From positions 120,281 through 184,280 of the IMG/VR virus record IMGVR_UViG_3300044960_000113: a stretch of 64,000 nucleotides of DNA; one strand, written 5' to 3'. The position numbers and the translations under genes were made by a program. Source of the DNA: a virus. How positions within the stretch are numbered: position 1 is the first letter of the stretch; every line of letters begins with the position of its first letter. The notes beneath the pieces are model-generated. The model was not told the DNA's origin and did no database searches. It was given only the letters and a program-made list of their open reading frames with translations. Shown piece by piece: positions 4,905-32,710 of the stretch.

Positions 4905-4933
4905 ATTATATCATAGTTTTATTAAAAAGTAAA
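4905..4933 (-). promoter_or_regulatory. sigma70-like promoter TTTACT-N17-TATAAT for Thr-Asn-rnpB
   Basis: Same motif recurs at 12857-12885, 18508-18536, 21682-21710, 30975-31003. Confidence 0.7.
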
Positions 4934-4942
4934 TACGTTTTA

Positions 4943-5311: not shown

Positions 5312-7030
5312 TTATCCACATTTACTAGAACCACATTGCATACATTTATGACATCCTTCTTGATATACAACCTTTTCACTTCCACATTCTGTACATTTTG
5401 CACCTTCAACTATTTCACCATCTTTAATAAATGATGCTAGAAATTTTTTAATCTGGAAAATAAAACTTCCAACATAAACATCTTTAATGCTATCAAGTGT
5501 TGCAACAATATTTTTGATTAATACTCCATGTCTAAGATTTAAAGAAATCATTCTAGCAATTTTAGAAGCATTATCATTTGATTTAATTTTTTCTAACACT
5601 TTATCTATATGCTCTTGTTTAATATTTTTTCTTTTTGCTAATTCTGTCAATTTATCAATAGCATCTAATGTTATAACATTTTTTTCATGATGATTTGTAT
5701 GAACAAATAATGCAAATGGTCTAGTGCGTGTTTCATTCCAAACAACAGTTAGATACCATTTTCTTCCTTCAGCACGTAAAGTTTTCATTGATGCTTCTGC
5801 AGTTTCTGGAAGAATTACATCATCTAAAATAATTTCCTCATCATAACCATTTTTATCTGTTTCTTTTGAAGATAGTACAGCTGTCATTGTACCTGTTCTG
5901 TATGTTGTTACACCTTTAACATATCCAGATTTATAAACATCTAAATAAACATTTTTAAAATCATCAAATGGATATTCATGTGGAACATTGACAGTTTTTG
6001 ACATAGCACTGTCAACCCATCTTGCAAATCCAACTAAATCATTAACATGATCTTCAACAGTCAATCCATTCAATGCAGTAACAGCCCATGGTGCTTTTGG
6101 ATTCCATTCATTTTTTTCTTTTAAATATCTAACACCATAATCAGAACACGTAACCTCTTTAGTCAATCCTCTATTTTTATCGATTTTATAAACTATACCA
6201 TTATGTTTTCCTTTAAGAATTTCTTCATCACCTTCTTTTGTGAATTTAAAAATTTTTGTTTCATGCCACTCACCATCGTACCATTTAGGTGTTTCTTCAA
6301 TCATATCTTCTGGAATAGATGGAACAATAACCGTTCTTATATATTCTGGCATAAATATTGGTTCTAATCCACTAGATACAACATTTGCTAATATAGAAGT
6401 ATTTCCTGTTGGTTGTATCGATAATAATGAACTATTCCTAATTCCAACAGTTTTTAATTTTTCCATATATGATTTTGATAGACCTAATGATTGAATAAAT
6501 GGATTTTCAGAATGTTTTTGTGGGTCACATAATTTAAACATTCCTTTTTCTTCTGCTAAATCAATAGATGACATATATGCACTTCTAGCTATGGTAGACA
6601 TAACCTTTTCACGCAATTCATGTGATTTATCAGAACCAAATTTTATTTTCAACATAAATAATGATGATGCCCAACCAAGAATACCAATACCAATGCGACG
6701 CTTATTTTTCATTGAATATTCATATTCAGGAAGTGGTGCATTAGATAAAGTATTAACATTATCTAAGAAACGAACAAGATAACCTGTATATTTTGCTATT
6801 TTTTTATAATCAAAATCTGTACAATCTTCATTAATAAATTGAGTTAAATTTAATGAAGATAAACAACAAATACCACCTGGAGCCAACATTTGTTCACCAC
6901 AATTATGAACTAAAATTCCATTTGCAAAAAAATTATGATTTTTGGTAGTAGTTAAATCAAAAACATCTTGATTTTCAGTTATTTTTATAGATTTAATTTT
7001 TAATTTGCGGAGGTTGTTGTTTGTTTCCAT
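5312..7030 (-). CDS. nrdJ: class II ribonucleotide reductase, C-terminal part, preceded by split-intein IntC
   Basis: 43-aa IntC ending VHN, then CGEQ; PTGNTS, KGVTTYR; C-terminal Cys-rich tail. Confidence 0.9.
   Translation of the reverse strand: METNNNLRKLKIKSIKITENQDVFDLTTTKNHNFFANGILVHNCGEQMLAPGGICCLSSLNLTQFINEDCTDFDYKKIAKYTGYLVRFLDNVNTLSNAPLPEYEYSMKNKRRIGIGILGWASSLFMLKIKFGSDKSHELREKVMSTIARSAYMSSIDLAEEKGMFKLCDPQKHSENPFIQSLGLSKSYMEKLKTVGIRNSSLLSIQPTGNTSILANVVSSGLEPIFMPEYIRTVIVPSIPEDMIEETPKWYDGEWHETKIFKFTKEGDEEILKGKHNGIVYKIDKNRGLTKEVTCSDYGVRYLKEKNEWNPKAPWAVTALNGLTVEDHVNDLVGFARWVDSAMSKTVNVPHEYPFDDFKNVYLDVYKSGYVKGVTTYRTGTMTAVLSSKETDKNGYDEEIILDDVILPETAEASMKTLRAEGRKWYLTVVWNETRTRPFALFVHTNHHEKNVITLDAIDKLTELAKRKNIKQEHIDKVLEKIKSNDNASKIARMISLNLRHGVLIKNIVATLDSIKDVYVGSFIFQIKKFLASFIKDGEIVEGAKCTECGSEKVVYQEGCHKCMQCGSSKCG
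6902..7030 (-). other. split intein C-fragment (43 aa)
   Basis: VFDLTT...HNFFANGILVHN followed by Cys+1. Confidence 0.92.
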
Positions 7031-7145
7031 ATAGCTTTTTCCTTTTTGTAACTTTCACAATAATCATTAATGTTGTCAATTATAATAATTGGTATATCTT
7101 GTTCTTTTTTTAACATCTATGGAAGTTATAAACCTATGTGACATT

Positions 7146-8483
7146 TTAAATACCTATTAAAATATCGTCTGTTGTTAAGTCAGATGCATTAACATACCCA
7201 CGATTTTCAGTATAGACTTTATGATCTGGTGTTAATTTAATGACTGTAGAATCTTCTAATTCTAATTCGATAACATTAGCATTATTACGTGTTTTGTCGA
7301 CAAAAGTTATATCTTCAAATTCTGTATTTTGTGTGTCAATATTCATTGTTAATACTTTGAAGCTTTCACCAGATTTAAACCTTTTGGCCAACTCAAAAAA
7401 TGATATTTCACCCTTATCTGTCGTGACTAAAGTATCACCAGTTAAACATGGATTTGTCGAATAAATTGTTTCAGCATAATTTAATGGATTAAAATAATTT
7501 GCACGATCTAAAAATAAAACACCTGGCTCTGCGCGATTATATGTTGATTCCATAATTAAATTCCATAGCCAAGTTGCTGATACTGTTTGATACACTATTG
7601 TTGGATACCCAGCTGATTCCCATTGCTTAATGTCACCTTTCCATTCTTTTTTATATTTTGGATGACTTGTGTCTGGGAAACGTAAATTCCATTTATCAAT
7701 TTCTTCTTTTTCTTTAATTAAAATTTGTTTATTTTCATCATCATCTGATAATGAATCAATTTGTTTTTGTAATTCTAATGCTTTTATAACCTTTGACATA
7801 AATTCATCTGAACAATTTACTGACATATTAAATTTTGTCAATCTTCCTGATGATTGTTTTGCTGTAATAAATTCTATAATATCAGGGTGCCAAACATCTA
7901 ATACTGCCATCATCGCGCCCTTTCTAATTTTACCTTTCGCTTTTACATGTGTTGATTTTTTACCTGAACCAGAAGTAATAATATCAGATGATTTATCAAA
8001 TAATTCCATATATTTTACAGCACCTGGCGTTTCAACGCCAATCCCATAAATAAAAGCACCACGCGGTCTTATCCAACTAAAATTTTCTCCCCATCCACCC
8101 TCACTTTTGAGTGTTTGTGCTTGATCATTTAATGTTTTAATAATATTACTTAATGAGTCTATATCATTATTTGCTCTAGGTGCAACAAAGCAATTAATAA
8201 ATGTTGTACCTTTCCATTCTGTCCCAGCATTTGCATAAATTCTACCACCAGCAGTAACTTTAAATTCACTAAGCATATCATAAAATTTTTCGGTCCACTC
8301 GATACGCTTTTCTTCAGTTTCTTCTGCTGATGCTATTGTTTTTGCGACTCTAAAAAGAGTATCATCTATTGTTTTATCATTATAATCTTTGTATGTTGTT
8401 TGCCATATTTCTTCTGAAAATTGATCTTGAAATTTTGTTGAATATTTTTTTTGAAGTTTTTGTTTAAGTGTATTGAAATCCAT
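7146..8483 (-). CDS. nrdJ: class II ribonucleotide reductase, N-terminal part, ending in split-intein IntN
   Basis: AGGRI, NCFV, LRPRG-like and FNMSV motifs; STNP followed by CLTGDTLV. Confidence 0.9.
   Translation of the reverse strand: MDFNTLKQKLQKKYSTKFQDQFSEEIWQTTYKDYNDKTIDDTLFRVAKTIASAEETEEKRIEWTEKFYDMLSEFKVTAGGRIYANAGTEWKGTTFINCFVAPRANNDIDSLSNIIKTLNDQAQTLKSEGGWGENFSWIRPRGAFIYGIGVETPGAVKYMELFDKSSDIITSGSGKKSTHVKAKGKIRKGAMMAVLDVWHPDIIEFITAKQSSGRLTKFNMSVNCSDEFMSKVIKALELQKQIDSLSDDDENKQILIKEKEEIDKWNLRFPDTSHPKYKKEWKGDIKQWESAGYPTIVYQTVSATWLWNLIMESTYNRAEPGVLFLDRANYFNPLNYAETIYSTNPCLTGDTLVTTDKGEISFFELAKRFKSGESFKVLTMNIDTQNTEFEDITFVDKTRNNANVIELELEDSTVIKLTPDHKVYTENRGYVNASDLTTDDILIGI
7149..7448 (-). 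other. split intein N-fragment (100 aa)
   Basis: Block A CLTGDT, block B LTPDHKVYT. Confidence 0.92.
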
Positions 8484-8638: not shown

Positions 8639-9880
8639 CTATAAAACCACTGGACACTTCAACGAAGCAGCCAATGTCGTACCGACCACTGGACTTATGA
8701 CCTCTCTGTGTCTGTTCTCGACTGATTCGGCCGAGTTTAATTCTCTTGCACCTCTTTTAATCCAATTGACAAGATCTCTAGAGGCTTCTTGTTCGATGTT
8801 CTTAGCAGCATTCAAGTCTCGATCATGCACTACACCACAGACGGGACATGTCCAACGACGGGCATCAAGCGATTTTTTACCATCATGATGACCACAAGTA
8901 GAACAAATTTGACTAGAAGCAAAGTAGCGATCAACCTTGGCAAATTCCTTGCCATACCAATTTGCTTTGTACTCAATTTTAGATACCAATGAAGACCAAC
9001 TCGCATCCGCAATGTTCTTGTTTCGAGTCTTGTTCTTAGACTGCATCATACCTTGGATAGCTAGATCCTCAAGATAGATGTAGTCATAATTCTTGACAAG
9101 CCATTTAGAAAACTCATGTTGTAGGTGTTCTCGCTGATTAGAAATTTTCAAATATATGCGATTGACCTTCAACTGTTGCTGCTTGCGGCGATTGCTACCT
9201 TTTTGCTTCCGACTCAAATGCTGTTGTGCTCTTTTTAGTTTAGATTGGCTTTCTCTAAACCACCTTGGATTTGCTAGTTTGTGACCGTCACTGAGAACAG
9301 CCAAATCTTTCAACCCAAGATCAATACCTACAGCACGATAGGTATTTGGTAAAGGTTCTGGTTTTGCTTCTTCCACCAGAACGCTTACAAAATACTGGTT
9401 TGCTTTGTTTTTCGAAACTGTTACTGATTTGGGCGCTCCACGGAACTTTCGATCAACAACCATTTTCATTGGTGTCATTTTTGTGAGCTTGATTGTTCCA
9501 GCATTTAAATCAAACGCCTTCATTCCACCCAATGATGCCGCGGGAATTTTGAATGAATCTCGTGATTTACCTTTACGTTTGAACTTCATTCGCCCAAGTT
9601 TAACTGCTCGTTTCTTGTTGAAGAATTGCTTTTTGGTTTCATCAAAGTCCATTCGCTTTTGCTGAAGTGCATAGCTGATGGCTTCGTTCAACCAAGGATA
9701 TCTGGGATCATCTTTCAAGGTCTTTTCTGTGACCGTTTGGTTTGGTCCATCTTTAGACCAAGAATTGAAGTTAGCTACCAGTTGATTCCAGACAAAACGA
9801 ACTGCACCAAAGTTCTGCAACAAGAACTGCTCTTGTTCTTTGGTTGGATATAACCGATACTTGTATGCCATAAGAATCAT
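8639..9880 (-). mobile_element. tnpB: RNA-guided endonuclease TnpB (IS200/IS605-type, no transposase)
   Basis: YKYRLYPT HTH; RuvC GIDLG, LEDL, HDRDLNAA; CxxC...CxxC; higher GC than flanks. Confidence 0.93.
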
Positions 9881-10071: not shown

Positions 10072-11085
10072 TTATGATTTAAGAAAATCTATTATCTTTT
10101 TTGATACTTCATCAAATTGTTGTTTAACCTTTTGTGCTTTTTCTTTTCCGTATTCTGATGTAACTTTATCAAATTTTGTTGCTGTTATTGCTTTATCCAT
10201 TTTCTTTCTATATATTGATGCAACTTTTTCTAAAAAATCATTTTCATCTGAAATATTTCTAAGTTGACCTTTATTATATGCATCATTTAACGTAAATGAT
10301 TTTGCTAATCCTTTTATTCCTCTCGCAATATCTTCTATTTTAACATTCTCAAGATTAAAACCAGAATATTTTTTTAAATCATTATGAATTTTTGCATTTT
10401 TACCAACAATATTAATTAATATATCTATTAAAAATTCTTTAGGATTAATACTAATAGTTTTTAAATCTGCTTTTTGTGTTCTGAAAGGAACAACTATTCC
10501 ATCTTTTGTTTTTTGTTGTACTCCATAACCCTGAATTGATAAATTAAGAATTTCTGCTAATGATGATAATAAATTTCCATATAATGCACCTTTAACACCA
10601 TGTTCAGGTTTATATCTAGCTTTTGCCCAATCTTTTGTATGTGTAAAAGTAAAGATTAAATCAACTTGAACATAATTATCACCATCTTTAATCATGATAA
10701 ATTGTCCAGCTGTTTTTGATTCTGGAACTGGGACAATATATGGTAAATTTGATTTTTCAACAAAATTTAAAATATTGTCATAATTTATTTTTACATTTTT
10801 ATAATCTGATTTTGATTCATCTTTTGGTATACTAATTAAACAATCAATATCACCATATTCTTTTTCAGGATCATCTTTATCATAATATGATACTGAACCA
10901 ACAGGACCAATAAATTCTATTTCATTGAAACCTTCTTTTTTTGCATACTTATTATATTTATCAAAAAATTTTTCAGTTAAATGTAATACTTTACGAACTA
11001 ATGGTGGAGTCAATTTTGTATTTTGATTGAGTGTTGTGCCCCAACCACCTTCTAATAAAGATAAAAAAGATTTAATAATTTTCAT
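10072..11085 (-). CDS. Pol-beta-like nucleotidyltransferase domain protein
   Basis: GSV...YGDIDCLI and VQVDL motifs. Confidence 0.6.
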   Translation of the reverse strand: MKIIKSFLSLLEGGWGTTLNQNTKLTPPLVRKVLHLTEKFFDKYNKYAKKEGFNEIEFIGPVGSVSYYDKDDPEKEYGDIDCLISIPKDESKSDYKNVKINYDNILNFVEKSNLPYIVPVPESKTAGQFIMIKDGDNYVQVDLIFTFTHTKDWAKARYKPEHGVKGALYGNLLSSLAEILNLSIQGYGVQQKTKDGIVVPFRTQKADLKTISINPKEFLIDILINIVGKNAKIHNDLKKYSGFNLENVKIEDIARGIKGLAKSFTLNDAYNKGQLRNISDENDFLEKVASIYRKKMDKAITATKFDKVTSEYGKEKAQKVKQQFDEVSKKIIDFLKS

Positions 11086-11343
11086 TTATTCAAATTTTTT
11101 TCTCAAAATATCTTTTGTTTTTTCTAATATTGATCTTCTTTCTGTACTTAAATTTTTACCAGCTCTATTAATATAGAAATTCAATGCACTCATGGCAGAT
11201 TTTAAGTCTTTGTGTGAACTTTTTAACCAAGATGCTATATCTTCAGCTGAACCATTAGCAAATAAATTTTCGGGAGGATGCTTTTTTGTTTCTACATCAC
11301 CAGACCACATTTTCTCAGATAATAATTCTTTTATTAATTTCAT
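11086..11343 (-). CDS. DUF3175-like protein
   Basis: SAMSALNFYINRAGKNLS motif. Confidence 0.7.
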   Translation of the reverse strand: MKLIKELLSEKMWSGDVETKKHPPENLFANGSAEDIASWLKSSHKDLKSAMSALNFYINRAGKNLSTERRSILEKTKDILRKKFE

Positions 11344-11599
11344 GATAATTTCTCCATAAATTTATAAAAATACTCTTAATTATTTATTAAATTAATTAAT
11401 TTTTTTATACATTAAAATTTAATTACTATTTTAATTAGTATCAACAACAAGAATCAAACCTTGATATTAGAATCTCATTAGGAACAAGATTTCGTTCATT
11501 CGGTATCGTAAGTAGTATTTGGTTGGTTGGAATACATGTTTAATAATATATAATTATAATAATATACAAATTATTTAATACATATTATTTAAAATTTTT

Positions 11600-11689
11600 T
11601 GGGGTGTATGGCCGGACTCGAACCGGCTATATCCTTTAGGAACTGTGTTTCACAGACACAGGGCGCGACCACTTTGCTCTTCATACACC
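11600..11689 (-). tRNA. trnH: tRNA-His(GTG) with G-1 and a long variable arm
   Basis: G-1:C73; CTGTGT-CTGTGAA-ACACAG; extra TCCT-AA-AGGA arm. Confidence 0.85.
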
Positions 11690-11750
11690 ATAGAAACTCT
11701 AGTTTTCTCTAGAGTTAAAAATTTACTTTTTATATCAGATTTTAATAACT

Positions 11751-11825
11751 TGGCTAGGGCCCCCAGATTCGAACTGAGACTATCACTGTCAAAGAGTGAG
11801 GTGCTGCCAATTACACCAGACCCCA
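11751..11825 (-). tRNA. trnQ: tRNA-Gln(TTG)
   Basis: Cloverleaf, TCACT-CTTTGAC-AGTGA. Confidence 0.93.
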
Positions 11826-11894
11826 ATTGTCAAAACACATTTTTCTTTTCAAAGATGATAAAAGTTTAAAATTTTTAATTGTTGTTAGTGTCTT

Positions 11895-11968
11895 TGGTTG
11901 TTCCTGAAGGTAACGCTCCTTCGTCTCACGATTATCAGTCGTGCGCTCTACTTTTGAGCTAAGGAACA
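11895..11968 (-). tRNA. trnI: tRNA-Ile(GAT), atypical T-loop AGCGTTA
   Basis: CACGA-CTGATAA-TCGTG; CCA end. Confidence 0.88.
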
Positions 11969-12026
11969 ATAAATTTTGATGGGGCTGCAGAGTACTGCCC
12001 CTGTCCTCCATCATTTTTTGTATTTT

Positions 12027-12101
12027 TGGTCGGCCCACCCAGATTCGAACTGAGAAAGATTGATTAAAAGTCAATTATGATACCAATTTCATCATGGGCC
12101 G
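12027..12101 (-). tRNA. trnK: tRNA-Lys(TTT)
   Basis: ATTGA-CTTTTAA-TCAAT. Confidence 0.92.
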
Positions 12102-12134
12102 AATGCTTTCCATTTTCAATTGTAACATTATGAT

Positions 12135-12224
12135 TGGCTGTCCAGGCAGGGATCGAACCTGCGTAAGTATCTCTACTCTCTCCGCTTAACAGGCGGGGCC
12201 GTTACCAACTCCGGTCACTGGACA
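12135..12224 (-). tRNA. trnN: tRNA-Asn(GTT) with a long variable arm
   Basis: CCCGC-CTGTTAA-GCGGA; AGTA-GAGA-TACT arm; G73. Confidence 0.82.
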
Positions 12225-12240
12225 TCTATTTTTAATCTTT

Positions 12241-12335
12241 TGATCTGCATCTCGTGCAGCTTCTCCAGATTTCCGCCTATTTAAATCCATTTTTAATCTG
12301 GTGGATTTTGGCTCTCGTTACCATTTTTACCAGTA
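12241..12335 (-). ncRNA. candidate pseudoknotted RNA
   Basis: AAATCCA/TGGATTT stem whose loop CCAGATT pairs with AATCTGG; CTGCA/TGCAG hairpin; GC-enriched. Confidence 0.45.
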
Positions 12336-12347
12336 TTATAAAACAAC

Positions 12348-12377
12348 TTAGGGTCTAAACTTTCGTTTTGACCCTAA
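12348..12377 (-). terminator. attenuator terminator C
   Basis: TTAGGGTC/GACCCTAA with a GAAA-capped AAAC/GTTT, followed by GTTGTTTT. Confidence 0.75.
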
Positions 12378-12410
12378 ATATATTTTTTGTGTTTAAGAGA
12401 ATAATATTAT

Positions 12411-12515
12411 TTAGGGCCATTCCCTATTTTGTTTATGATCAATAGTGCGAATAGTGACCTGTGCAGTTTTAATCTGCACTGTCTGTTTTCTATTTGTATT
12501 AATCATAAAAGCCAT
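12411..12515 (-). CDS. leader peptide C (34 aa) MAFMINTNRKQTVQIKTAQVTIRTIDHKQNREWP
   Basis: GGAG RBS; 3' end GGCCCTAAATA pairs with the terminator 5' arm. Confidence 0.75.
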   Translation of the reverse strand: MAFMINTNRKQTVQIKTAQVTIRTIDHKQNREWP

Positions 12516-12715
12516 TTTATATTACTCCATTTAAACATAAATCTATTTATTGATATTTCAAAAATTTTTAATAAAAACCCTAAAATAAGGTTTTTATTAA
12601 AAGTGATTATAATATTGATTTTCCCACAACAAGGTCTTTATCACACCTATCCTTTAGTCATTCATTATCATCACGACCATAAGTCAAACTGCAATTGAGT
12701 ATGAACTGTATTTTT

Positions 12716-12837
12716 AAACTCTGCCCCCGAAGCTGTAAAGTTATAGTCGCTCCGATTTCTGCTCCCACAGCGGCCGATTTGTTGAATTGAGTACTGGGAG
12801 ATACTCAATTTTTTGTCGGCCCTTAGCGACAGAGTTT
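12716..12837 (-). ncRNA. candidate structured RNA (about 122 nt)
   Basis: AAACTCTGTC/GGCAGAGTTT, GGCCGA/TCGGCC, TTGAGTA/TACTCAA, GCTGT/ACAGC; starts just after a promoter. Confidence 0.6.
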
Positions 12838-12856
12838 TTATTTAAAATATGTAGAT

Positions 12857-12885
12857 ATTATATCTAATATCAAACAAAAAGTAAA
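12857..12885 (-). promoter_or_regulatory. sigma70-like promoter TTTACT-N17-TATAAT
   Basis: Exact motif. Confidence 0.7.
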
Positions 12886-12997
12886 CAGTTATTTTGATAA
12901 ATATTTTTATTAATTAATAAATAGATTTTATATATTTAAAATTACTATATAAGAATAATATTCTAGGAGTCTCTGAGATCATCCTAGTGTCTCTGGA

Positions 12998-13342
12998 TTA
13001 TATACTTTTTCTAATTTTAACCCAATCTATTTTGTTAAATTTTCGCATATCACATTCCCCAGCAATTTTTAACATTTTAGAAAGAGTATATTTTTCATTA
13101 TCAAAAAGACAATATGTCTCTACCGTATTAATATGAATAGGATTAATAATAATTTTACCTTCTGAAAATTTTGCTATTTGTTTAGAAGTTTCTATTAAAG
13201 AAACATATCCACCTTTCATTAATCTTAATGCAATTACAACAAATTCTCCCCTTTCATTATCATCTGAAAAATCAAATGAAAAATTAATTGTGTGTAAATT
13301 ATTATCTTTAGTTTTACATTCAATAATCAAGTAAGCTTTCAT
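12998..13342 (-). CDS. hypothetical protein
   Basis: ORF track. Confidence 0.6.
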   Translation of the reverse strand: MKAYLIIECKTKDNNLHTINFSFDFSDDNERGEFVVIALRLMKGGYVSLIETSKQIAKFSEGKIIINPIHINTVETYCLFDNEKYTLSKMLKIAGECDMRKFNKIDWVKIRKSI

Positions 13343-13415
13343 AATTTATATAAAAAATAGACAATATAAATTATCAAAAAGAAATAGACATAAACTATTA
13401 AAATTTAAAAATAAT

Positions 13416-14303
13416 TTATGTCCATAAATATCGACGTATTTTAATTAAACGTTCTAACATTTCATCATCTTCTTTAATATAAGATTCTTCTATTTCAATC
13501 ATTTTATCTTGACATTTTTTCCATTCTTCATCTATTTTTTCATCATTATCTTCTATCATATCAATGATACTATTTTTTCCATTTTTGTATTTTGAATTAT
13601 AATACTCAGTATATCCAGATTCATCCATTGGATCTTTTCTCATTGGTCGAATAAATTTCCACCAAACATAAAGATCAAGAATTTCTAATGCAGCTTCAGC
13701 CTGATGTGTTGGTTTCATATATTCAGGATTATTTTTTCTTTTTTCATCTACTACATCTTTTCCTTCTTTTTCTTCCAACCAAGTATAACCAAACCAATTA
13801 TCATCTTTTAATAATTTTGTTTCCCATAAAAGATAATCGACGCCTAATTGTTGACTTCTAATAGGAATAAATTTATGTATAAAATATGGTAAATATTTGA
13901 CATACCATGGTTTTTTAGAATTATCACACCACATATTTAAACTAGCTTTTTCAATTTCAACAAAATCTACTAAAAGTTCAAACATTCCATGTAACATTTT
14001 TTCTTCTGTTTCATGCCATGAACCTTTTGATAAACGAGTATTAATTATATGAGATGGTGAAATAAAACGTAAGTTAAACCAATATGCAAAATTATCTAAT
14101 TTATCTTTTGGCCAATAGACTATATCTTGAAGTAAATCTAAACCATCTTCAGATAACCAATATAAAAATTTATTTTTTTCTTTAGCTTTTTTATGATATT
14201 CTTTCCAACCTTTTGCGTCTGCTGCTAAAGGTTTAGGATCAATACCTCCCAATTTTTTTAACCAATTAGAAAATTTAGAACAACTCCAATATGAAACTCT
14301 CAT
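13416..14303 (-). CDS. hypothetical phage protein
   Basis: 295-aa ORF with AGGAG RBS. Confidence 0.75.
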   Translation of the reverse strand: MRVSYWSCSKFSNWLKKLGGIDPKPLAADAKGWKEYHKKAKEKNKFLYWLSEDGLDLLQDIVYWPKDKLDNFAYWFNLRFISPSHIINTRLSKGSWHETEEKMLHGMFELLVDFVEIEKASLNMWCDNSKKPWYVKYLPYFIHKFIPIRSQQLGVDYLLWETKLLKDDNWFGYTWLEEKEGKDVVDEKRKNNPEYMKPTHQAEAALEILDLYVWWKFIRPMRKDPMDESGYTEYYNSKYKNGKNSIIDMIEDNDEKIDEEWKKCQDKMIEIEESYIKEDDEMLERLIKIRRYLWT

Positions 14304-14372
14304 AATTTTGTCTCCTATTATAATAGGTAATAAATATATACTTTGAATAATTAAAATTATATAATTATCGTT

Positions 14373-14660
14373 TTATTCATGTAATTGAATATTTTTTCCT
14401 GATTTTAAAATATTAAAATTATCAATTATTACACCAAATACATATGCCATAGTAACAGTTAATGAAATACTAAAAGCCCATGTTAATGCAGATGTATGTA
14501 ATGAATTTGTTGGTTCTCCATTTATTATTAACCATGTTATAAGTGACCAACAATATAAAAGTGTAACAACAATAATATTTTTTCTAATTGTTTTTGTTGG
14601 TAGTTGATTTTGATTTTGTATTTGTTCTGACATTTTAATTCCTTCTCCTAAATAATTCAC
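14373..14660 (-). CDS. two-TM membrane protein
   Basis: Two hydrophobic segments; likely start at MSEQ after AGGAG. Confidence 0.6.
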   Translation of the reverse strand: MNYLGEGIKMSEQIQNQNQLPTKTIRKNIIVVTLLYCWSLITWLIINGEPTNSLHTSALTWAFSISLTVTMAYVFGVIIDNFNILKSGKNIQLHE

Positions 14661-14676
14661 ATAATTTTACTTTCGG

Positions 14677-14764
14677 GGGCGGAAGGTGTGGGACTCGAAC
14701 CCACGAGACCATTGCTGGTCCACTGCTTTCCAGGCAGTTCTCATAGCCGCTAGAGGAACCTTCC
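14677..14764 (-). tRNA. trnS: tRNA-Ser(GGA), ends in CCC
   Basis: ACTGC-CTGGAAA-GCAGT; near-identical to 15752-15839. Confidence 0.9.
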
Positions 14765-14863
14765 ATTTTACAAAATAAAGGAGATGTCTAACCTCTCAAA
14801 CCAACCCAGTATTAATATTATATATCATTCTATAGCATTATTTATATACTAAATTTAAAAAAT

Positions 14864-14890
14864 AAAAAGCGAACTACAAGTTCGCTTTTT
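14864..14890. terminator. bidirectional intrinsic terminator
   Basis: AAAAAGCGAAC/GTTCGCTTTTT. Confidence 0.75.
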
Positions 14891-15086
14891 ATCTCAACCA
14901 TACTTTTTATCGTATAGTTTTAACGCATTTATTCTAGCTAAAAACAATCTTATCTTAATAATATCATCTAATTCTTCTCTATGTTTAACTAATCGTATAG
15001 ATTTAGATTGTAACAAAACATCAAAATCTATATCTATATCATTTAATTCTTGATTGTTTGTACCAGTTAATAAAAAAATAATTCTA

Positions 15087-15341
15087 TTATTTAGCTGGCT
15101 TAGCTTCGACTTTTGCTTTACTTTTAGTGTTAGTTTTTTTACTAGCAGATTTTTTAACAGCTTTCTTTACTGGCTCAGCTTTTGCTGGTGTAGGTGCGAC
15201 AGCTGTAGAAGCAGCAGGAACAGCAGGAGCAGTCTTAGGTGCATCAGCTGCTAAAACTGAAGAAATACCAAATGTGATGACTAAAGCTGAAACTAGAAGT
15301 GAATTTTTCATATTAGATCTCCTTATATTAATTAGATACAA
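15087..15341 (-). CDS. exported Ala/Pro/Lys-rich small protein (Asr-like)
   Basis: Signal peptide MKNSLLVSALVITFGISSVLAA (probable true start), basic low-complexity tail. Confidence 0.65.
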   Translation of the reverse strand: MYLINIRRSNMKNSLLVSALVITFGISSVLAADAPKTAPAVPAASTAVAPTPAKAEPVKKAVKKSASKKTNTKSKAKVEAKPAK

Positions 15342-15411
15342 ACGGAATTATCTGTATCTATATAATTAATACTCCTAGGAGAGAAAAGTTACATATATTT
15401 AGGAAATATTT

Positions 15412-15496
15412 TGGTGCGTAGGGAGGGAGTCGAACCCTCAATCCTTTCGGCGCTGGCTTCTAAGACCAGAGTGTATTCCAGTTCCACCACCTACGC
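15412..15496 (-). tRNA. trnL: tRNA-Leu(TAG)
   Basis: CTGGT-CTTAGAA-GCCAG. Confidence 0.93.
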
Positions 15497-15501
15497 ATTA
15501 A

Positions 15502-15584
15502 TGGTGCCCTCAACAGGATTCGAACCTGTAAAAGCTCTGGGTTTGAGCCAGTCGTCTGTGCCAATTTAACTAAGCCATGAGGGC
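15502..15584 (-). tRNA. trnL: tRNA-Leu(CAA), atypical D arm
   Basis: CTGG-CTCAAAC-CCAG; canonical T arm and CCA. Confidence 0.75.
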
Positions 15585-15594
15585 AATTTTTGTT

Positions 15595-15668
15595 TGGAAA
15601 CGAGGGCGGGAATCGAACCCACCTCTTGGGTTTTGCAGACCCAGGCACAACCACTATACCACCTCGTC
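15595..15668 (-). tRNA. trnC: tRNA-Cys(GCA)
   Basis: TGGGT-CTGCAAA-ACCCA; U73. Confidence 0.93.
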
Positions 15669-15673
15669 AATTT

Positions 15674-15749
15674 TGGTGCTCCAGGAAAGAATCGAACTTT
15701 CTTTTCATCTTTACCAAAGATGTGTATTACACCAATATACTACAGGAGC
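15674..15749 (-). tRNA. trnT: tRNA-Thr(GGT)
   Basis: CATCT-TTGGTAA-AGATG. Confidence 0.9.
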
Positions 15750-15751
15750 AA

Positions 15752-15839
15752 TGGCGGAAGGTGTGGGACTCGAACCCACGAGACCATTGCTGGTCTACTG
15801 CTTTCGAGGCAGTTCTCATAGCCGCTAGAGGAACCTTCC
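15752..15839 (-). tRNA. trnS: tRNA-Ser(CGA)
   Basis: ACTGC-CTCGAAA-GCAGT, long variable arm. Confidence 0.92.
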
Positions 15840-15902
15840 ATATTTTTATTATTAATTCTTACTCTATCTTCTTATGGCCCAGAATATAATGTTAAATTTT
15901 TT

Positions 15903-15998
15903 TGGCGGAGATGGTAGGATTCGAACCTACGTGTCCTTTTTTTGGAGGACCCATTGTTTTCAAGACAAGTACCTTAAGCCAGACTCAGTCACATCTCC
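15903..15998 (-). tRNA. trnS: tRNA-Ser(TGA)
   Basis: TTGT-CTTGAAA-ACAA, long variable arm, G73. Confidence 0.92.
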
Positions 15999-16003
15999 AT
16001 TTT

Positions 16004-16104
16004 GTTCTTGCCGGATACTCATCCGAGTAGGAGCAATGGTCCGGCGCCAAAGGCAAGATTTACTACGTGCTTGCACACTCCACCTAGCATTTCGGCTAGG
16101 CAAC
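16004..16104 (-). ncRNA. candidate pseudoknotted RNA between Ser tRNAs
   Basis: CCTAGC/GCTAGG, TCTTGCC/GGCAAGA, TACTC/GAGTA, GGAG/CTCC. Confidence 0.5.
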
Positions 16105-16117
16105 TTCTTTTACATAA

Positions 16118-16205
16118 TGGCGGAAGTTAGAGGATTCGAACCTCTGTGACCTTTCGGTCGATCTGTTTAGCAAACAGTCCCAATAGGCCTCTCTGGCAAA
16201 CTTCC
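16118..16205 (-). tRNA. trnS: tRNA-Ser(GCT)
   Basis: CTGT-TTGCTAA-ACAG, long variable arm. Confidence 0.92.
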
Positions 16206-16232
16206 AAAATTTTAATATAATATCTTTTTTAA

Positions 16233-16310
16233 TGGTCGGTGTGGCAGGATTCGAACCTGCGGTTTCCTGCTCCCAAAGCAGGCGACTTAACCGAGCTAGC
16301 CTACACACCG
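16233..16310 (-). tRNA. trnP: tRNA-Pro(TGG)
   Basis: CCTGC-TTTGGGA-GCAGG. Confidence 0.95.
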
Positions 16311-16332
16311 AAAAAATTTAAAAATTTTAATT

Positions 16333-17010
16333 TTAAACTAAATTATTTTTAATATCTTCTAATGATCTAATTAGATTCTTAACATAGACACCTAAAGAAT
16401 CCATTGACATATATAAATCATTAACAAGTTTTTTAGATTCTGGTGTTATTGTTTTATCTTTTTTCATTTTATCTACACGATATGATAAAACCATATTTGA
16501 TGTATCTGGACTTTCAGAATCTAATTTTGATTTAACAATGTCATATTTTTTTCGTATTTCATCTATTTGATTTAAAAATCCTTCATCGTATTTTTTATAT
16601 TTCTTATACCAATAAGTTATTAATCCATGAGGATCATGATTTTCAGCTGATTCTAAAATACGATTTAATATATCAATAGTATTGTCAATTCTAAAATCTT
16701 TTCTATCTACTTTTGGAAGATATTTAGAAAGCATTTCTTTAATAAAATCTTCAAGATGTTTTTCTAATTCTGTTTCTAATTCGTTTTTATTTGAATATTT
16801 GCTAAATCCTTTATTTTTTAAATATCCAGGTATCACTCCATCATTATAATATTTGTAGTACTGATAAAAAACTCTATCTTTTCTTTCTTTATCTGTTTTT
16901 GATAAAATATTTTTATCATACATCCATGCCATTAATTTATCAATTTTTGATAATTTATTATTCCATGCTCTACCTGGTTTTGAAGCTTCAAATAATTCAG
17001 ATACTTTCAT
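16333..17010 (-). CDS. hypothetical protein with CTS-like N-terminus (MKVSELFE)
   Basis: Two TATAAATA motifs upstream (17047-17064). Confidence 0.7.
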   Translation of the reverse strand: MKVSELFEASKPGRAWNNKLSKIDKLMAWMYDKNILSKTDKERKDRVFYQYYKYYNDGVIPGYLKNKGFSKYSNKNELETELEKHLEDFIKEMLSKYLPKVDRKDFRIDNTIDILNRILESAENHDPHGLITYWYKKYKKYDEGFLNQIDEIRKKYDIVKSKLDSESPDTSNMVLSYRVDKMKKDKTITPESKKLVNDLYMSMDSLGVYVKNLIRSLEDIKNNLV

Positions 17011-17080
17011 TCTATATCTCCATTACTAGAACAATTAATATGTTAATATTTATAAGTATTTATAGAATTATAACATATTT

Positions 17081-17168
17081 TGGTGCAGCAGGTAGGATTT
17101 GCACCTACTCAGCACTAAGGCGCCGAATTTACAGTCCGGTGAGGCTCTCTAAACTCCCCCGCTGCTGC
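17081..17168 (-). tRNA. trnY: tRNA-Tyr(GTA)
   Basis: CCGGA-CTGTAAA-TTCGG, variable arm. Confidence 0.88.
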
Positions 17169-17174
17169 ATTAAC

Positions 17175-17249
17175 TGGTAACCAAGAAGAATTTCGAAATC
17201 TCGACCTTTTGCATGTCATGCAAACGCTCTTCCTCTGAGCTACTTGGTT
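17175..17249 (-). tRNA. trnV: tRNA-Val(GAC)
   Basis: TTTGC-ATGACAT-GCAAA (A32 atypical). Confidence 0.8.
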
Positions 17250-17269
17250 ATTTTTTACATATAATATTT

Positions 17270-17353
17270 TGGTGGGGTATCTAGGTAACGATCCTAGCTG
17301 GCCGAAGCATAAGTTTTACAGACTCCAGTGTCTCCTTAACACTCTAATACCCC
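17270..17353 (-). tRNA. trnY: tRNA-Tyr(GTA), T-loop ATCGTTA
   Basis: GAGT-CTGTAAA-ACTT. Confidence 0.78.
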
Positions 17354-17364
17354 ATATAATCATT

Positions 17365-17439
17365 TGGTGCCTCGTGAAGGTTACGCTCCTTCTACCCTTC
17401 GCTTGTAAGGCGAATGCTCTACTATTGAGCTAACGAGGC
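17365..17439 (-). tRNA. trnV: tRNA-Val(TAC), T-loop AGCGTAA
   Basis: TTCGC-CTTACAA-GCGAA. Confidence 0.88.
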
Positions 17440-17447
17440 ATTTAAAA

Positions 17448-17594
17448 GAGTATTAATCGACACATGGGTTTAAGGACTTCATAGATATGTCCTCTCAATT
17501 TGATTATACAAGTTGTCCATACTTGTAAATTGAGATTACGTTAACGCTTTGGTCGATCAAGCAGGCGGACACACCAATTTGTTCCCTAATACTC
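17448..17594 (-). ncRNA. candidate structured RNA (147 nt) abutting the tRNA-Phe CCA
   Basis: GAGTATTA/TAATACTC closing stem, GATCGAC/GTCGATT, TCTCAATTT/AAATTGAGA, ACAAGT/ACTTGT, GGAC/GTCC. Confidence 0.6.
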
Positions 17595-17673
17595 TGGTGC
17601 AAGGTCCAGGAATCGAACCTGGTTTTACTGCTCTTCAGGCAGTCGCTGAAATCACCAGACTAGCTCACCTTGC
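17595..17673 (-). tRNA. trnF: tRNA-Phe(GAA), enlarged D loop
   Basis: ACTGC-CTGAAGA-GCAGT. Confidence 0.85.
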
Positions 17674-17684
17674 ATATTTCAACT

Positions 17685-17783
17685 ACCTCGTATCAATTGC
17701 ACAGCACTATTATTACATTATTATTGTCTACCAGTGGCCACAGATTAGTGTAATCATTCCCTAGTTCGTCAACTAGGCGAGAT
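17685..17783 (-). ncRNA. candidate structured RNA (about 99 nt)
   Basis: ATCTCG/CGAGGT closure, CCTAGTT-GACG-AACTAGG, ATTAC/GTAAT. Confidence 0.45.
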
Positions 17784-17794
17784 TATTTAATAAT

Positions 17795-17874
17795 TGGTGG
17801 ACCTCCAGGGATTTGAACCCTGCTGAATATCCGCATTGCAAGTGCGGCGAACACCCCAAGCATTCCCGAAGCCC
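17795..17874 (-). tRNA. trnA: tRNA-Ala(TGC)
   Basis: G3:U70; CCGCA-CTTGCAA-TGCGG. Confidence 0.92.
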
Positions 17875-17884
17875 ATTATGTTTT

Positions 17885-17958
17885 TGGCGGGCTGCCAAGG
17901 AATCGAACCCTGATCTGATGTTTTGGAGACATCCATTCTACCACTGAACTAGCAACCC
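17885..17958 (-). tRNA. trnW: tRNA-Trp(CCA)
   Basis: GATGT-CTCCAAA-ACATC. Confidence 0.93.
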
Positions 17959-17966
17959 GTTTTTAT

Positions 17967-30691: not shown

Positions 30692-31080
30692 TTTATATAC
30701 TCCTTTACGTGTTAAAATAATTCACTTAAATTTATTTATTAAATCAATCCATTCATCTTATTCCACATTTCTGCATATTCACGAGCATGAGTAAATGCGT
30801 AATCATCAGATTGTGGATCAAAACGCATAATCAAATTATTGCCTACAAACACGTTAGGTCCAATTGCTTCTGCTTTAGGGCGATCTTCTCCACAATAATA
30901 TTCTCCTTCTGGACAATCATCGACCAGGTCTCGCATAATTAATATCTCCTTTCATCATTGATTTATATGAATATATAATATCACATTTTTAGTAAAAAGT
31001 AAATATATAAAAATATGTATATAAATCAATAAATTATATTTATATACATTTGATCTTTATAATTATAAAGTTATTTTATA

Positions 31081-31887: not shown

Positions 31888-32199
31888 GTTTTTCCATCAA
31901 GCTACAATATTCGTCAATAATCTTTTTAGATTCGGTCAAAGAAACGTTAAAGGTTTTGTAATGTTTCAAAACAGCTTCAACTTTAAGACCAGCGTGAACA
32001 AGATCCTGCCAAGTATAGTCACTTTTCAAAAGTTCATCCTTAGCAGTATTATAAGCATGTTTAACAGCCTTAAACGTTTCGATATTCATCATCGCCTATG
32101 GTATATGGGTTAATATTGACATTATAACACAAAAATAAAGAAAAGTATATAAAATATTTATTTAATATTATTAATTTTTTTAATAAAGATAGTTAAAAT

Positions 32200-32510
32200 A
32201 AAATGCAAGCTGATTTGATGACAAGGACAGCTTGCGAAACCTCGTGGTGATTACGCTGCTAGGCGCATCTCTCCAAAATATTCATCATTTGCTGCATTTA
32301 TTTTAGTTTTGTCTTCTCAATAACGGCTTTAGACATTGCCGAGCGCCTTTTATTAGTACTAATCGTTACCACGTCGAAACCATATACCACCCCATATTAA
32401 AATTTTAATCTATTGGTGGAGTGGGCGGGAATCGAACCCGCGTCCGCAATAACTTTCCCTTATAAAAGGTTTACGCTGTTTTACTACATTTACACAAACG
32501 CCAATTTGTG
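32200..32510 (-). ncRNA. ssrA: two-piece (circularly permuted) tmRNA
   Basis: Acceptor piece ends GGGTTCGATTCCCGCCCACTCCACCA (32414); 20-nt spacer; coding piece starts GGGGTGG (32393) giving G3:U70; tag AANDEYFGEMRLAA* at 32295-32251; outer ends approximate. Confidence 0.92.
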
Positions 32511-32534: not shown

Positions 32535-32563
32535 ATTATAATACAAAAAAATCAAAATGTAAA
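32535..32563 (-). promoter_or_regulatory. sigma70-like promoter TTTACA-N17-TATAAT for ssrA
   Basis: Exact spacing. Confidence 0.65.
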
Positions 32564-32710
32564 TATTAAAATTCTGCTACTGGTTTAAAACCATTTCTTC
32601 TAACGCTTTTTCTAGTTGAGAACTAGACATGTTCATTATAACTTTTTTAATATTATTTTCTACATCATTAACAAATTCTTTTAATAACATAATTAAATCC
32701 TCTTTAAAAA

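Follow-up and report, generated by a model that had tools for sequence, protein, structure and literature searches.

What controls a phage tRNA cluster that is separated from its promoter by a short open reading frame (ORF) and a terminator-like hairpin? The question is raised by a group of five tRNA genes in the genome of a huge AT-rich hot-spring phage. The stretch of DNA that we analyzed (hereafter the window) comprises 64 kb with a GC content of about 27%, and forms the last part of a 184-kb IMG/VR virus record which is estimated to be approximately half complete. DNA of the window is also present in hot-spring and microbial-mat metagenomes. ARAGORN identifies 27 tRNA genes and a permuted tmRNA in the window, all on the minus strand, and several tRNAs beyond these calls have Rfam support. 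Among the translation-related genes of the phage itself are also ArfA, the tmRNA and a miniature RNase P RNA. Control of tRNA genes is established to act at the promoter, through growth-rate and stringent control, and attenuation is not known to take part. The locus examined here, which we call unit C, was nevertheless read as an attenuator in an earlier note on this DNA, and our analysis suggests that this reading is probably correct.

Promoter, leader ORF and tRNA genes of unit C

In the order of transcription, unit C holds the following features, to which the pairing elements listed in the next section are to be added:

12857 to 12894, minus strand: promoter of the stable-RNA type, with a -35-like element (TGTTTACTTTTT, 12887-12876) and an extended -10 element (GATATAAT, 12864-12857); repeat family D14
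12570 to 12836, minus strand: structured RNA in the promoter-to-leader interval, about 265 nt (MFE -77.5, z -4.75)
12411 to 12515, minus strand: leader ORF of 34 codons plus TAA, from direct reading and the ORF listing
12426 to 12443, minus strand: candidate regulatory codon run, codons 25-30 of the leader, ATT GAT CAT AAA CAA AAT (Ile, Asp, His, Lys, Gln, Asn)
12225 to 12337, minus strand: spacer from the terminator to the first tRNA gene, 113 nt, weakly structured (z -1.9)
11600 to 12224, minus strand: tRNA genes of the unit, as called by ARAGORN
12224-12135, minus strand: tRNA-Asn(gtt), ARAGORN and Rfam
12101-12027, minus strand: tRNA-Lys(ttt), ARAGORN and Rfam
11968-11895, minus strand: tRNA-Ile(gat), ARAGORN and Rfam
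11825-11751, minus strand: tRNA-Gln(ttg), ARAGORN and Rfam
11688-11600, minus strand: tRNA-His(gtg), ARAGORN, without Rfam confirmation

The earlier note had placed tRNAs for Asn, Lys, Ile, Gln and His downstream of the leader, and indeed ARAGORN calls all five and Rfam recovers all but His. Each of the five genes encodes its CCA end. Those for tRNA-Asn and tRNA-His have long variable arms, which is unusual, and the anticodon arm of the tRNA-Lys is an ordinary one, common to many phage tRNA-Lys genes. Other hairpins are found in the spacers between the tRNA genes of the cluster (e.g., 11716-11695). A candidate tRNA-Arg(cct) at 11513-11438, which would match an AGG codon of the leader, was rejected given its low ARAGORN score, absence of Rfam support and poor acceptor pairing.

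The promoter is the sole one of the stable-RNA type upstream of unit C. Its form (TGTTTACTTTTT, approximately 11 nt, then GATATAAT) also heads the tRNA units at 4.9, 18.5, 18.6 and 21.7 kb and the tmRNA at 32.5 kb; it precedes all three units with a leader (unit C and the two sister units described below), as well as a Thr-Asn cluster and the tmRNA. In none of the three leader units does the motif occur between the terminator and the tRNA genes, and in unit C none was found in the spacer at 12337-12225. At the other tRNA clusters of the phage, namely Thr-Asn, Ala-Gly-Gly, Ile(tat), Thr(cgt), Arg(tct) and Ser(gga), promoters are present and the combination of leader and terminator is absent. 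From the promoter of unit C to its leader the distance is about 340 nt. A long AT-rich hairpin, at approximately 12606-12570, closes the structured RNA of this interval; it may serve as a processing site or terminate transcription leakily. Because this 265-nt structured RNA with its terminator-like hairpin intervenes after the promoter, the position at which the leader transcript begins is uncertain. Neither phage records nor the retrieved loci contain a homolog of the structured RNA itself (12836-12570), and it matches no Rfam family.

The leader ORF starts at an ATG (12515-12513), has a Shine-Dalgarno GGAG (12528-12525) 9 nt 5' of it, and stops at a TAA (12413-12411). Both direct reading and the ORF listing agree with the claim that an ORF at 12515-12411 carries the ATT-GAT-CAT-AAA-CAA-AAT run shortly before its stop. 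Five of these six codons are cognate to the five tRNAs encoded downstream, and codons 25-30 (12443-12426) do therefore cover all five cognate amino acids within six codons, as had been proposed. The run is followed by AGG GAA TGG CCC and then the TAA, so that the leader ends in Trp-Pro-stop. A C-terminal proline slows translation termination, and such an end fits an attenuator, in which the ribosome would be held on the strand that we designate region 2 below.

Codons for Ser, Leu, Gly, Tyr and Cys are entirely missing from the leader, and the predicted peptide is hydrophilic, with abundant Thr, Lys, Gln, Asn and Arg. It matches no family in Pfam or PHROG, and a search against 1.84 billion representative proteins returned the peptide itself and nothing else. 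The mRNA of a type I toxin or of a small membrane peptide would encode a hydrophobic, membrane-spanning peptide of about 30 aa, and the hydrophilic character and the absence of a family match speak against it. In an alternative scenario, unit C would be an ordinary small gene or RNA with a terminator of its own, the ORF being either incidental or the gene of a small protein, and the tRNAs would be transcribed from an unrecognized promoter or by constitutive leak-through. The ORF matches only itself, which leaves room for this scenario, but a small-protein gene is at odds with a hydrophilic peptide of no known family, and an unrecognized promoter with the absence of a promoter motif in the 113-nt spacer. 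The pairings around the stop codon bear further on this alternative.

Alternative pairings and a folding model

The following elements surround the end of the leader ORF:

12518 to 12537, minus strand: 5' strand of helix P1, which includes the Shine-Dalgarno GGAG (MFE fold)
12412 to 12426, minus strand: 1:2 hairpin, UAGGG with CCCUA and a loop AAUGG (MFE folds)
12402 to 12418, minus strand: region 2, the 5' strand of the antiterminator, spanning the last two sense codons, the stop and 9 nt further
12391 to 12407, minus strand: 3' strand of helix P1, in the spacer past the leader stop
12370 to 12386, minus strand: region 3, whose alternative partners are region 2 (antiterminator) and region 4 (terminator)
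12346 to 12379, minus strand: predicted hairpin of the intrinsic terminator, regions 3:4 (14 pairs, a single A.A mismatch, dG -16.5 to -17)

The 11-nt GGCCCUAAAUA (12418-12408) is complementary to UAUUUAGGGUC (12380-12370), one G.U pair included, and the 11-bp pairing between the ORF end and the 5' arm of the terminator that had been described earlier is thus real. In RNAduplex the pairing grows to 16 pairs with one bulge and reaches a dG of -17.6 kcal/mol, which is matched by one in 2000 dinucleotide shuffles of the ORF-end segment (shuffles -7.1 +/- 2.0). The complementarity of the two antiterminator strands is far beyond chance. The GAAA-capped terminator of the earlier note was also recovered, as the hairpin at 12379-12346 with a GAAA tetraloop at 12364-12361. 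Its U tract (12345-12338, tail UGUUUUAUAAU) is imperfect and interrupted.

Such a U tract, together with the other hairpins in the spacers between the tRNAs of the cluster and the long AT-rich hairpin upstream of the leader, might point to a role in RNA maturation. The hairpin would then contribute to the processing or the stability of the tRNA precursor instead of ending transcription, for instance as a cleavage site of RNase III or RNase E or by protecting the 5' end, and the alternative pairing would tune cleavage and not termination. Nevertheless, a GC-rich stem with a T-rich tail, resembling an intrinsic terminator, is found in all three leader units of this phage and in three units from other phages (L005, L026 and L028; see below), and its geometry relative to the stop codon is that seen in attenuators. 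We regard a processing element as very improbable.

Two further elements of the folds involve the leader ORF. In the MFE folds the 1:2 hairpin locks part of region 2 when the ribosome is absent, and another helix joins the first codons of the ORF to the ATT GAT CAT AAA of the codon run; part of the sequence of the run may, on this model, be set by RNA structure and not by coding. Helix P1 has a duplex energy of -13.4 kcal/mol, with 17 of 2000 shuffles as good. Since P1 crosses the 2:3 pairing, and both cannot form in a nested structure, P1 would be an anti-antiterminator.

The folded 221-nt region is as a whole very strongly structured (fold z -7.8 vs. shuffles), as a stable small RNA would be, and at equilibrium the Shine-Dalgarno is sequestered in P1; both observations suit the small gene or RNA introduced above. 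Yet a plain terminator leaves the complementarity between the stop region and the terminator 5' arm unexplained, and this complementarity recurs in six units. The excess of cognate codons sits in the frame of the ORF (see the next section), which an incidental ORF would not account for, and the terminator of the sister unit at 21.6 kb leaves just 13 nt before the first tRNA. Taken together with the spacer and the peptide, these observations make an ordinary small gene or RNA quite unlikely.

When the complete leader was folded at equilibrium with ribosomes masked, the terminator was preferred every time and the folds were uninformative. The decision would therefore have to be kinetic, taken during transcription. 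A crude model, in which the transcript is cut before the terminator 3' arm and a 30-nt ribosome footprint is masked, discriminates between ribosome positions. With no ribosome, region 3 is unpaired with region 2 and the terminator is free to form; with a ribosome on the stop codon the 2:3 pairing is absent and the terminator is again free. An A site at codon 27 (CAU) or 28 (AAA) lets region 2 capture 13 of the 17 nt of region 3, as does one at codon 29 (CAA) if ribosomes queue behind. The 2:3 switch stays closed in these folds when the stall is at an Ile or Asn codon of the run. Within the limits of the model, the masked folds reproduce the classical off/off/on logic of trp-type attenuators.

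As an attenuator, unit C would work as follows. A host-type RNA polymerase would start at 12894-12857 and proceed through the structured RNA into the leader, on which a ribosome would load at the GGAG/ATG and translate the 34-codon ORF. With charged tRNAs for Ile-(Asp)-His-Lys-Gln-Asn in plentiful supply, the ribosome would arrive at Trp-Pro-stop and cover region 2 (12418-12402), the 3:4 terminator would form, and transcription would stop at about 12345-12338. A stall within the run (in the model at CAU or AAA, or at CAA with a queue) would cover the 1:2 hairpin and set region 2 free; region 2 would pair with region 3 as it emerges, no terminator would form, and the polymerase would read into the tRNA genes. 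With no translation at all, P1 and the 1:2 hairpin would lock region 2, the default thus being off as well. The net effect would be a negative feedback, tRNAs being made when the decoding of their own codons is slow. Sequence and computation show the ORF, its ribosome-binding site, the alternative pairings with their significance, the absence of a promoter before the tRNAs and the agreement of codons and tRNAs across three units; translation of the leader ORF, stalling in it, the efficiency of the terminator and the direction of the response are what we infer in this scheme.

Codon content of the leader in unit C and in two sister units

Two sister units, at 21.6 and 18.4 kb in the window, share the layout of unit C:

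21495 to 21719, minus strand: 21.6-kb sister unit (unit B), with promoter, leader, antiterminator, terminator and tRNAs
21644-21555, minus strand: leader of the 21.6-kb unit, 29 codons, GGAG upstream
21521-21495, minus strand: terminator of the 21.6-kb unit, the first tRNA lying 13 nt further
18306 to 18627, minus strand: 18.4-kb sister unit (unit A), with two promoters, leader, antiterminator, terminator, ArfA-like ORF and tRNAs
18459-18364, minus strand: leader of the 18.4-kb unit, 31 codons, the last of which form the 11-bp antiterminator
18336-18306, minus strand: terminator of the 18.4-kb unit, followed by the ArfA-like ORF and then a 14-tRNA array

The antiterminator of the 21.6-kb unit comprises 16 bp and begins 5 nt past the leader stop. 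The gap between terminator and tRNAs is so short in this unit (13 nt) that its tRNAs would be made solely by read-through. In the 18.4-kb unit, the ORF past the terminator is ArfA-like by its match to Pfam PF03889 (26.8 bits). Both sister antiterminators are better than all of 2000 shuffles, and the masked folds of both units give the antiterminator upon a stall and none with the ribosome at the stop. An Rfam scan of positions 11000-22000 returned no leader family, either at gathering score or at E values up to 5, save for a weak sub-threshold L20_leader at the 18.4-kb unit.

The cluster at 21.6 kb encodes tRNAs for Gly, Glu, Gly, Asp, an Asp-like (GUC), Arg(ACG) and Arg(UCG). Three of these genes, the second Asp(GUC) and the odd Arg ACG and UCG, were missed by ARAGORN and found by Rfam. 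The tRNA-Arg genes were sought because the leader of this unit carries four CGN codons, which are very rare in the phage (CGC and CGG make up 0.09% and 0.04% of codons, respectively), and two were found as predicted.

Codons cognate to the tRNAs of the own cluster number 12/28, 20/30 and 15/33 in the three leaders, the last being that of unit C, against expected fractions of 0.20, 0.36 and 0.28, respectively, and all six cross-cluster comparisons are at or below expectation. Combined by Fisher's method, the three units give a P of 3e-5 with the tRNAs called by ARAGORN under default settings, and of 1e-7 when the Rfam-supported extras are added. Of the 14 tRNA species in the array at 18.4 kb, 12 have codons in the leader of that unit. 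When leaders are ranked by cognate fraction and coverage among 434 real small ORFs of the record, those of the sister units come first and second and that of unit C 28th. Furthermore, when the six frames are compared, the ORF frame is the richest in cognate codons in each of the three units; in the DNA of the unit C leader the count is 15, versus 9, 6, 12, 4 and 4 in the others.

Considered alone, the codon match of unit C is suggestive but modest (P of about 0.003-0.06) and not decisive. Its 15 cognate codons in 33, set against the fraction of 0.28 expected from the long ORFs of the phage, correspond to a binomial P of 0.02, and the enrichment is weak because codons for Asn, Lys and Ile are common in an AT-rich genome. 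Among random 33-codon peptides drawn from phage codon usage, 0.3% contain a window of at most six codons in which all five tRNA species are represented, and 12 of the 878 real small ORFs in the record contain one (P 0.003-0.014, for a statistic picked after the data had been seen), and genome-wide such six-codon windows number 2 in 10,000.

These figures leave room for an attenuator that is coupled to translation without codon specificity, its leader reporting no more than whether ribosomes are at work and advancing, a measure of global translation capacity, and the codon run of unit C being a chance product of AT-rich sequence. The modest match (P 0.02, rank 28 of 434) would agree with such a sensor, as would the fact that the structural parts are the best-supported portion of the finding, and the near-complete amino acid sets in the leaders of L026 and L028 (see below) would suit a general sensor equally well. 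However, the sister leaders match their own clusters strongly and specifically, each being depleted in the codons of the other, and the match is frame-specific in all three units. In addition, rare CGN codons correctly predicted hidden tRNA-Arg genes, and the run of unit C, with five species in six codons, is sited where, in the folding model, a stall frees region 2. A non-specific sensor is thus unlikely. We consider it probable that unit C is a ribosome-mediated transcription attenuator of the trp/ilv style acting on a five-gene tRNA operon, a verdict based on the structural evidence of unit C and on the three-unit pattern, more than on the codons of unit C alone.

Comparison with known attenuators and with other phages

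Attenuation by a leader peptide is textbook knowledge for amino-acid operons, such as those with the ilvGMEDA leader (Ile/Leu/Val) and the thr leader (Thr/Ile). Unit C resembles these in having a short leader, here of predicted translation, with codons for more than one amino acid; 1:2, 2:3 and 3:4 pairings that exclude one another; a region 2 that is masked by a ribosome at the stop and freed by a stalled one, in unit C according to the folding model; and an intrinsic terminator ahead of the genes that are regulated. In contrast, these leaders govern biosynthetic enzymes and unit C would govern tRNA genes, in a phage; unit C has an extra long-range helix, from the Shine-Dalgarno region to the spacer past the stop; and there is no similarity to them in sequence or in Rfam. 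Cognate codons are single in unit C, whereas hisL and pheL contain runs of them.

Similar in logic is the pheM leader of Escherichia coli pheST, where a leader with cognate codons regulates a decoding component for those same codons, in a feedback on decoding capacity. However, the product there is a synthetase for one amino acid, and in unit C it would be five tRNAs, each for a different amino acid. T-box riboswitches (Rfam RF00230) also translate the state of a specific tRNA into a choice between terminator and antiterminator upstream of translation-related genes, but they bind the uncharged tRNA directly, with no ribosome, via a specifier codon and the T-box sequence. RF00230 has no match at unit C, and the covariance models of the curated Rfam leader families (Trp, His, Thr, Leu, Phe and others) gave no match either. 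As in the attenuator class, unit C has a leader ORF with initiation signals, a terminator without an intervening promoter and an antiterminator masked at the stop; in place of biosynthesis enzymes or an aminoacyl-tRNA synthetase, tRNA genes lie downstream. A regulated product consisting of tRNA genes, in a phage, is a departure from known attenuators, and a full-text literature search, with most subscription journals outside its reach, turned up no account of tRNA genes controlled by a leader-peptide attenuator.

No close relative of unit C emerged from several searches. Blastn against phage records yielded tRNA matches only, and the proteins neighboring unit C found either two distant, non-syntenic loci (L002 and L003) or nothing among viral contigs. 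A 17-mer of the tRNA-Lys anticodon arm and one of the promoter retrieved 38 and 58 loci, respectively, with no close relative among them, and a metagenome scan with a 295-aa neighbor protein recovered relatives at 43-48% only.

The phage tRNA loci derived from the 17-mers were also screened for tRNA arrays preceded by a terminator and, upstream of that, by a small ORF with an end complementary to the terminator 5' arm. Beside the units of this phage, the screen yielded three unrelated phage contigs. One (L028) has a 40-codon ORF and a terminator 53 nt ahead of a 24-tRNA array, the second (L026) a 46-codon ORF, and in the third (L005) the ORF, ahead of a 27-tRNA array, is cut by the contig end. 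In all three the terminator 3' arm is copied in the last codons of the ORF, and 0, 3 and 0 of 2000 shuffles are as good as the antiterminators of L028, L026 and L005, respectively. The order of parts is that of unit C: the end of a small ORF lies over a copy of the terminator 3' arm, and the terminator and a tRNA array follow. Sequence similarity to unit C is absent and the codon content differs, since these leaders sample nearly all amino acids ahead of large mixed arrays, whereas the present phage has three blocks with matched leaders. The leaders of L028 and L026 contain 19 kinds of amino acid in 40 codons and 20 in 46, a variety seen in 10 of 747 and 4 of 527 small ORFs, respectively.

With an antiterminator threshold of -16 kcal/mol or better, 5 of the 65 terminator-like hairpins that lie upstream of tRNAs carry the signature, compared with 23 of the 1526 hairpins elsewhere, an approximately five-fold enrichment. 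The structural signature is thus neither unique to tRNA arrays nor rare in absolute terms. We found no cultured relative of L028, and saw no such leader in the tRNA regions that we retrieved from phAPEC8-like and Microcystis phages. In a 416-kb phage (L015), a Lys-Gln-Ile-Asn-Trp cluster stands directly behind a promoter, without a leader. The design recurs in unrelated phages and may therefore be widespread. Overall, the earlier attenuator reading gains support from the antiterminator, the absence of a promoter ahead of the tRNAs, the masked folds, the sister units and the three units in other phages.

A broader reading, possible if doubtful, is that the phage keeps its tRNA pool under surveillance: most of its tRNA genes would be arranged in three codon-class regulons, each behind a leader of its own codons, which would detect host tRNAs that are lost and replace exactly those. 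The loss could stem from nucleases of the PrrC type acting on tRNA-Lys, or from a mismatch between the supply of the host and the AT-rich codons of the phage; a link of unit C to anticodon nucleases, though putative, is plausible. ArfA, the tmRNA and the miniature RNase P RNA of the phage would join the same translation-maintenance program, and the terminated, tightly folded leader RNA might also act in trans.

If unit C works as proposed, it would amount to a direct feedback loop on tRNA supply through a test of codon decoding, and would provide a sensor of tRNA availability that is both simple and portable. It would suggest a new explanation of the reason and the timing of tRNA array expression in large phages, and would make testable the idea that phage tRNAs are an answer to the depletion of host tRNAs, including depletion by tRNA-cleaving defense systems.

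Reading frames around the 18.4-kb unit

The first gene 3' of the proposed attenuator at 18.4 kb encodes a short protein matching Pfam ArfA (alternative ribosome-rescue factor A) with a score of 26.8 bits, where the cut-off is 25.5. The Shine-Dalgarno sequence of this gene base-pairs with a stretch 5' of the terminator in that unit. A tRNA-like element, called by neither ARAGORN nor Rfam, occupies the interval from this frame to tRNA-Trp; its anticodon loop has CAU, and its T loop is atypical.

18168-18284 (-), ArfA-like ORF, 38 aa
18100-18170 (-), tRNA-like element

The position of the ArfA-like frame is mirrored in L026, an unrelated phage contig of the same layout, in which the attenuator-like terminator is separated from the first tRNA by a 60-aa ORF (7086-7268, (+)) without a Pfam match. 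Just 5' of the promoters of the 18.4-kb unit, a 164-aa ORF contains a 63-nt coding repeat, present five times in tandem (18724-19149).

Unusual tRNA genes and a split ribonucleotide reductase

The cluster of the sister unit at 21.6 kb includes two tRNA-Arg-like genes, in both of which the D-arm region is much reduced and the anticodon arm is followed by a long insert. ARAGORN missed both, while Rfam placed one above threshold and gave only a weak tRNA-Sec match for the other.

20808-20883 and 20890-20967 (-), tRNA-Arg-like genes, anticodons UCG and ACG
20971-21043 (-), second, divergent tRNA-Asp(GUC)

Long variable arms occur in tRNA-Asn (90 nt, 12135-12224 (-)) and in tRNA-His (89 nt, 11600-11688 (-); not detected by Rfam), and such an arm is unusual for these two identities. 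Each of the two ribonucleotide reductase ORFs matches half of an intein at the point where the gene is split; the neighbouring gene is of the IS605 OrfB/TnpB type and lies in a locally GC-richer stretch.

5312-8483 and 8639-9880 (-), ribonucleotide reductase split into two ORFs

Structured RNA, tmRNA and a shared promoter motif

Between a stable-RNA promoter, immediately 5', and leader C, the 34-codon ORF of the Asn-to-His tRNA unit, lies a GC-richer structured RNA (folding MFE -77.5, z -4.75), with a multi-branch 5' domain and a long AT-rich hairpin at its 3' end. It matched no Rfam family, and no homologues were found in phage records or in the loci retrieved for comparison. The phage also encodes a permuted tmRNA (Rfam RF04321, 92.7 bits), whose tag-like coding stretch has a similar counterpart in the related contig L003.

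12570-12836 (-), structured RNA, 265 nt
32160-32506 (-), permuted tmRNA

At the head of the tRNA units and of the tmRNA we found a conserved promoter motif, TGTTTACTTTTT, followed by an extended -10 such as GATATAAT.

4924-4935, 12876-12887, 18527-18538, 18609-18620, 21701-21712, 30994-31005 and 32554-32565 (-), motif copies

Judged from sequence, these predicted promoters seem to form a class of their own that the phage uses for its stable RNAs.
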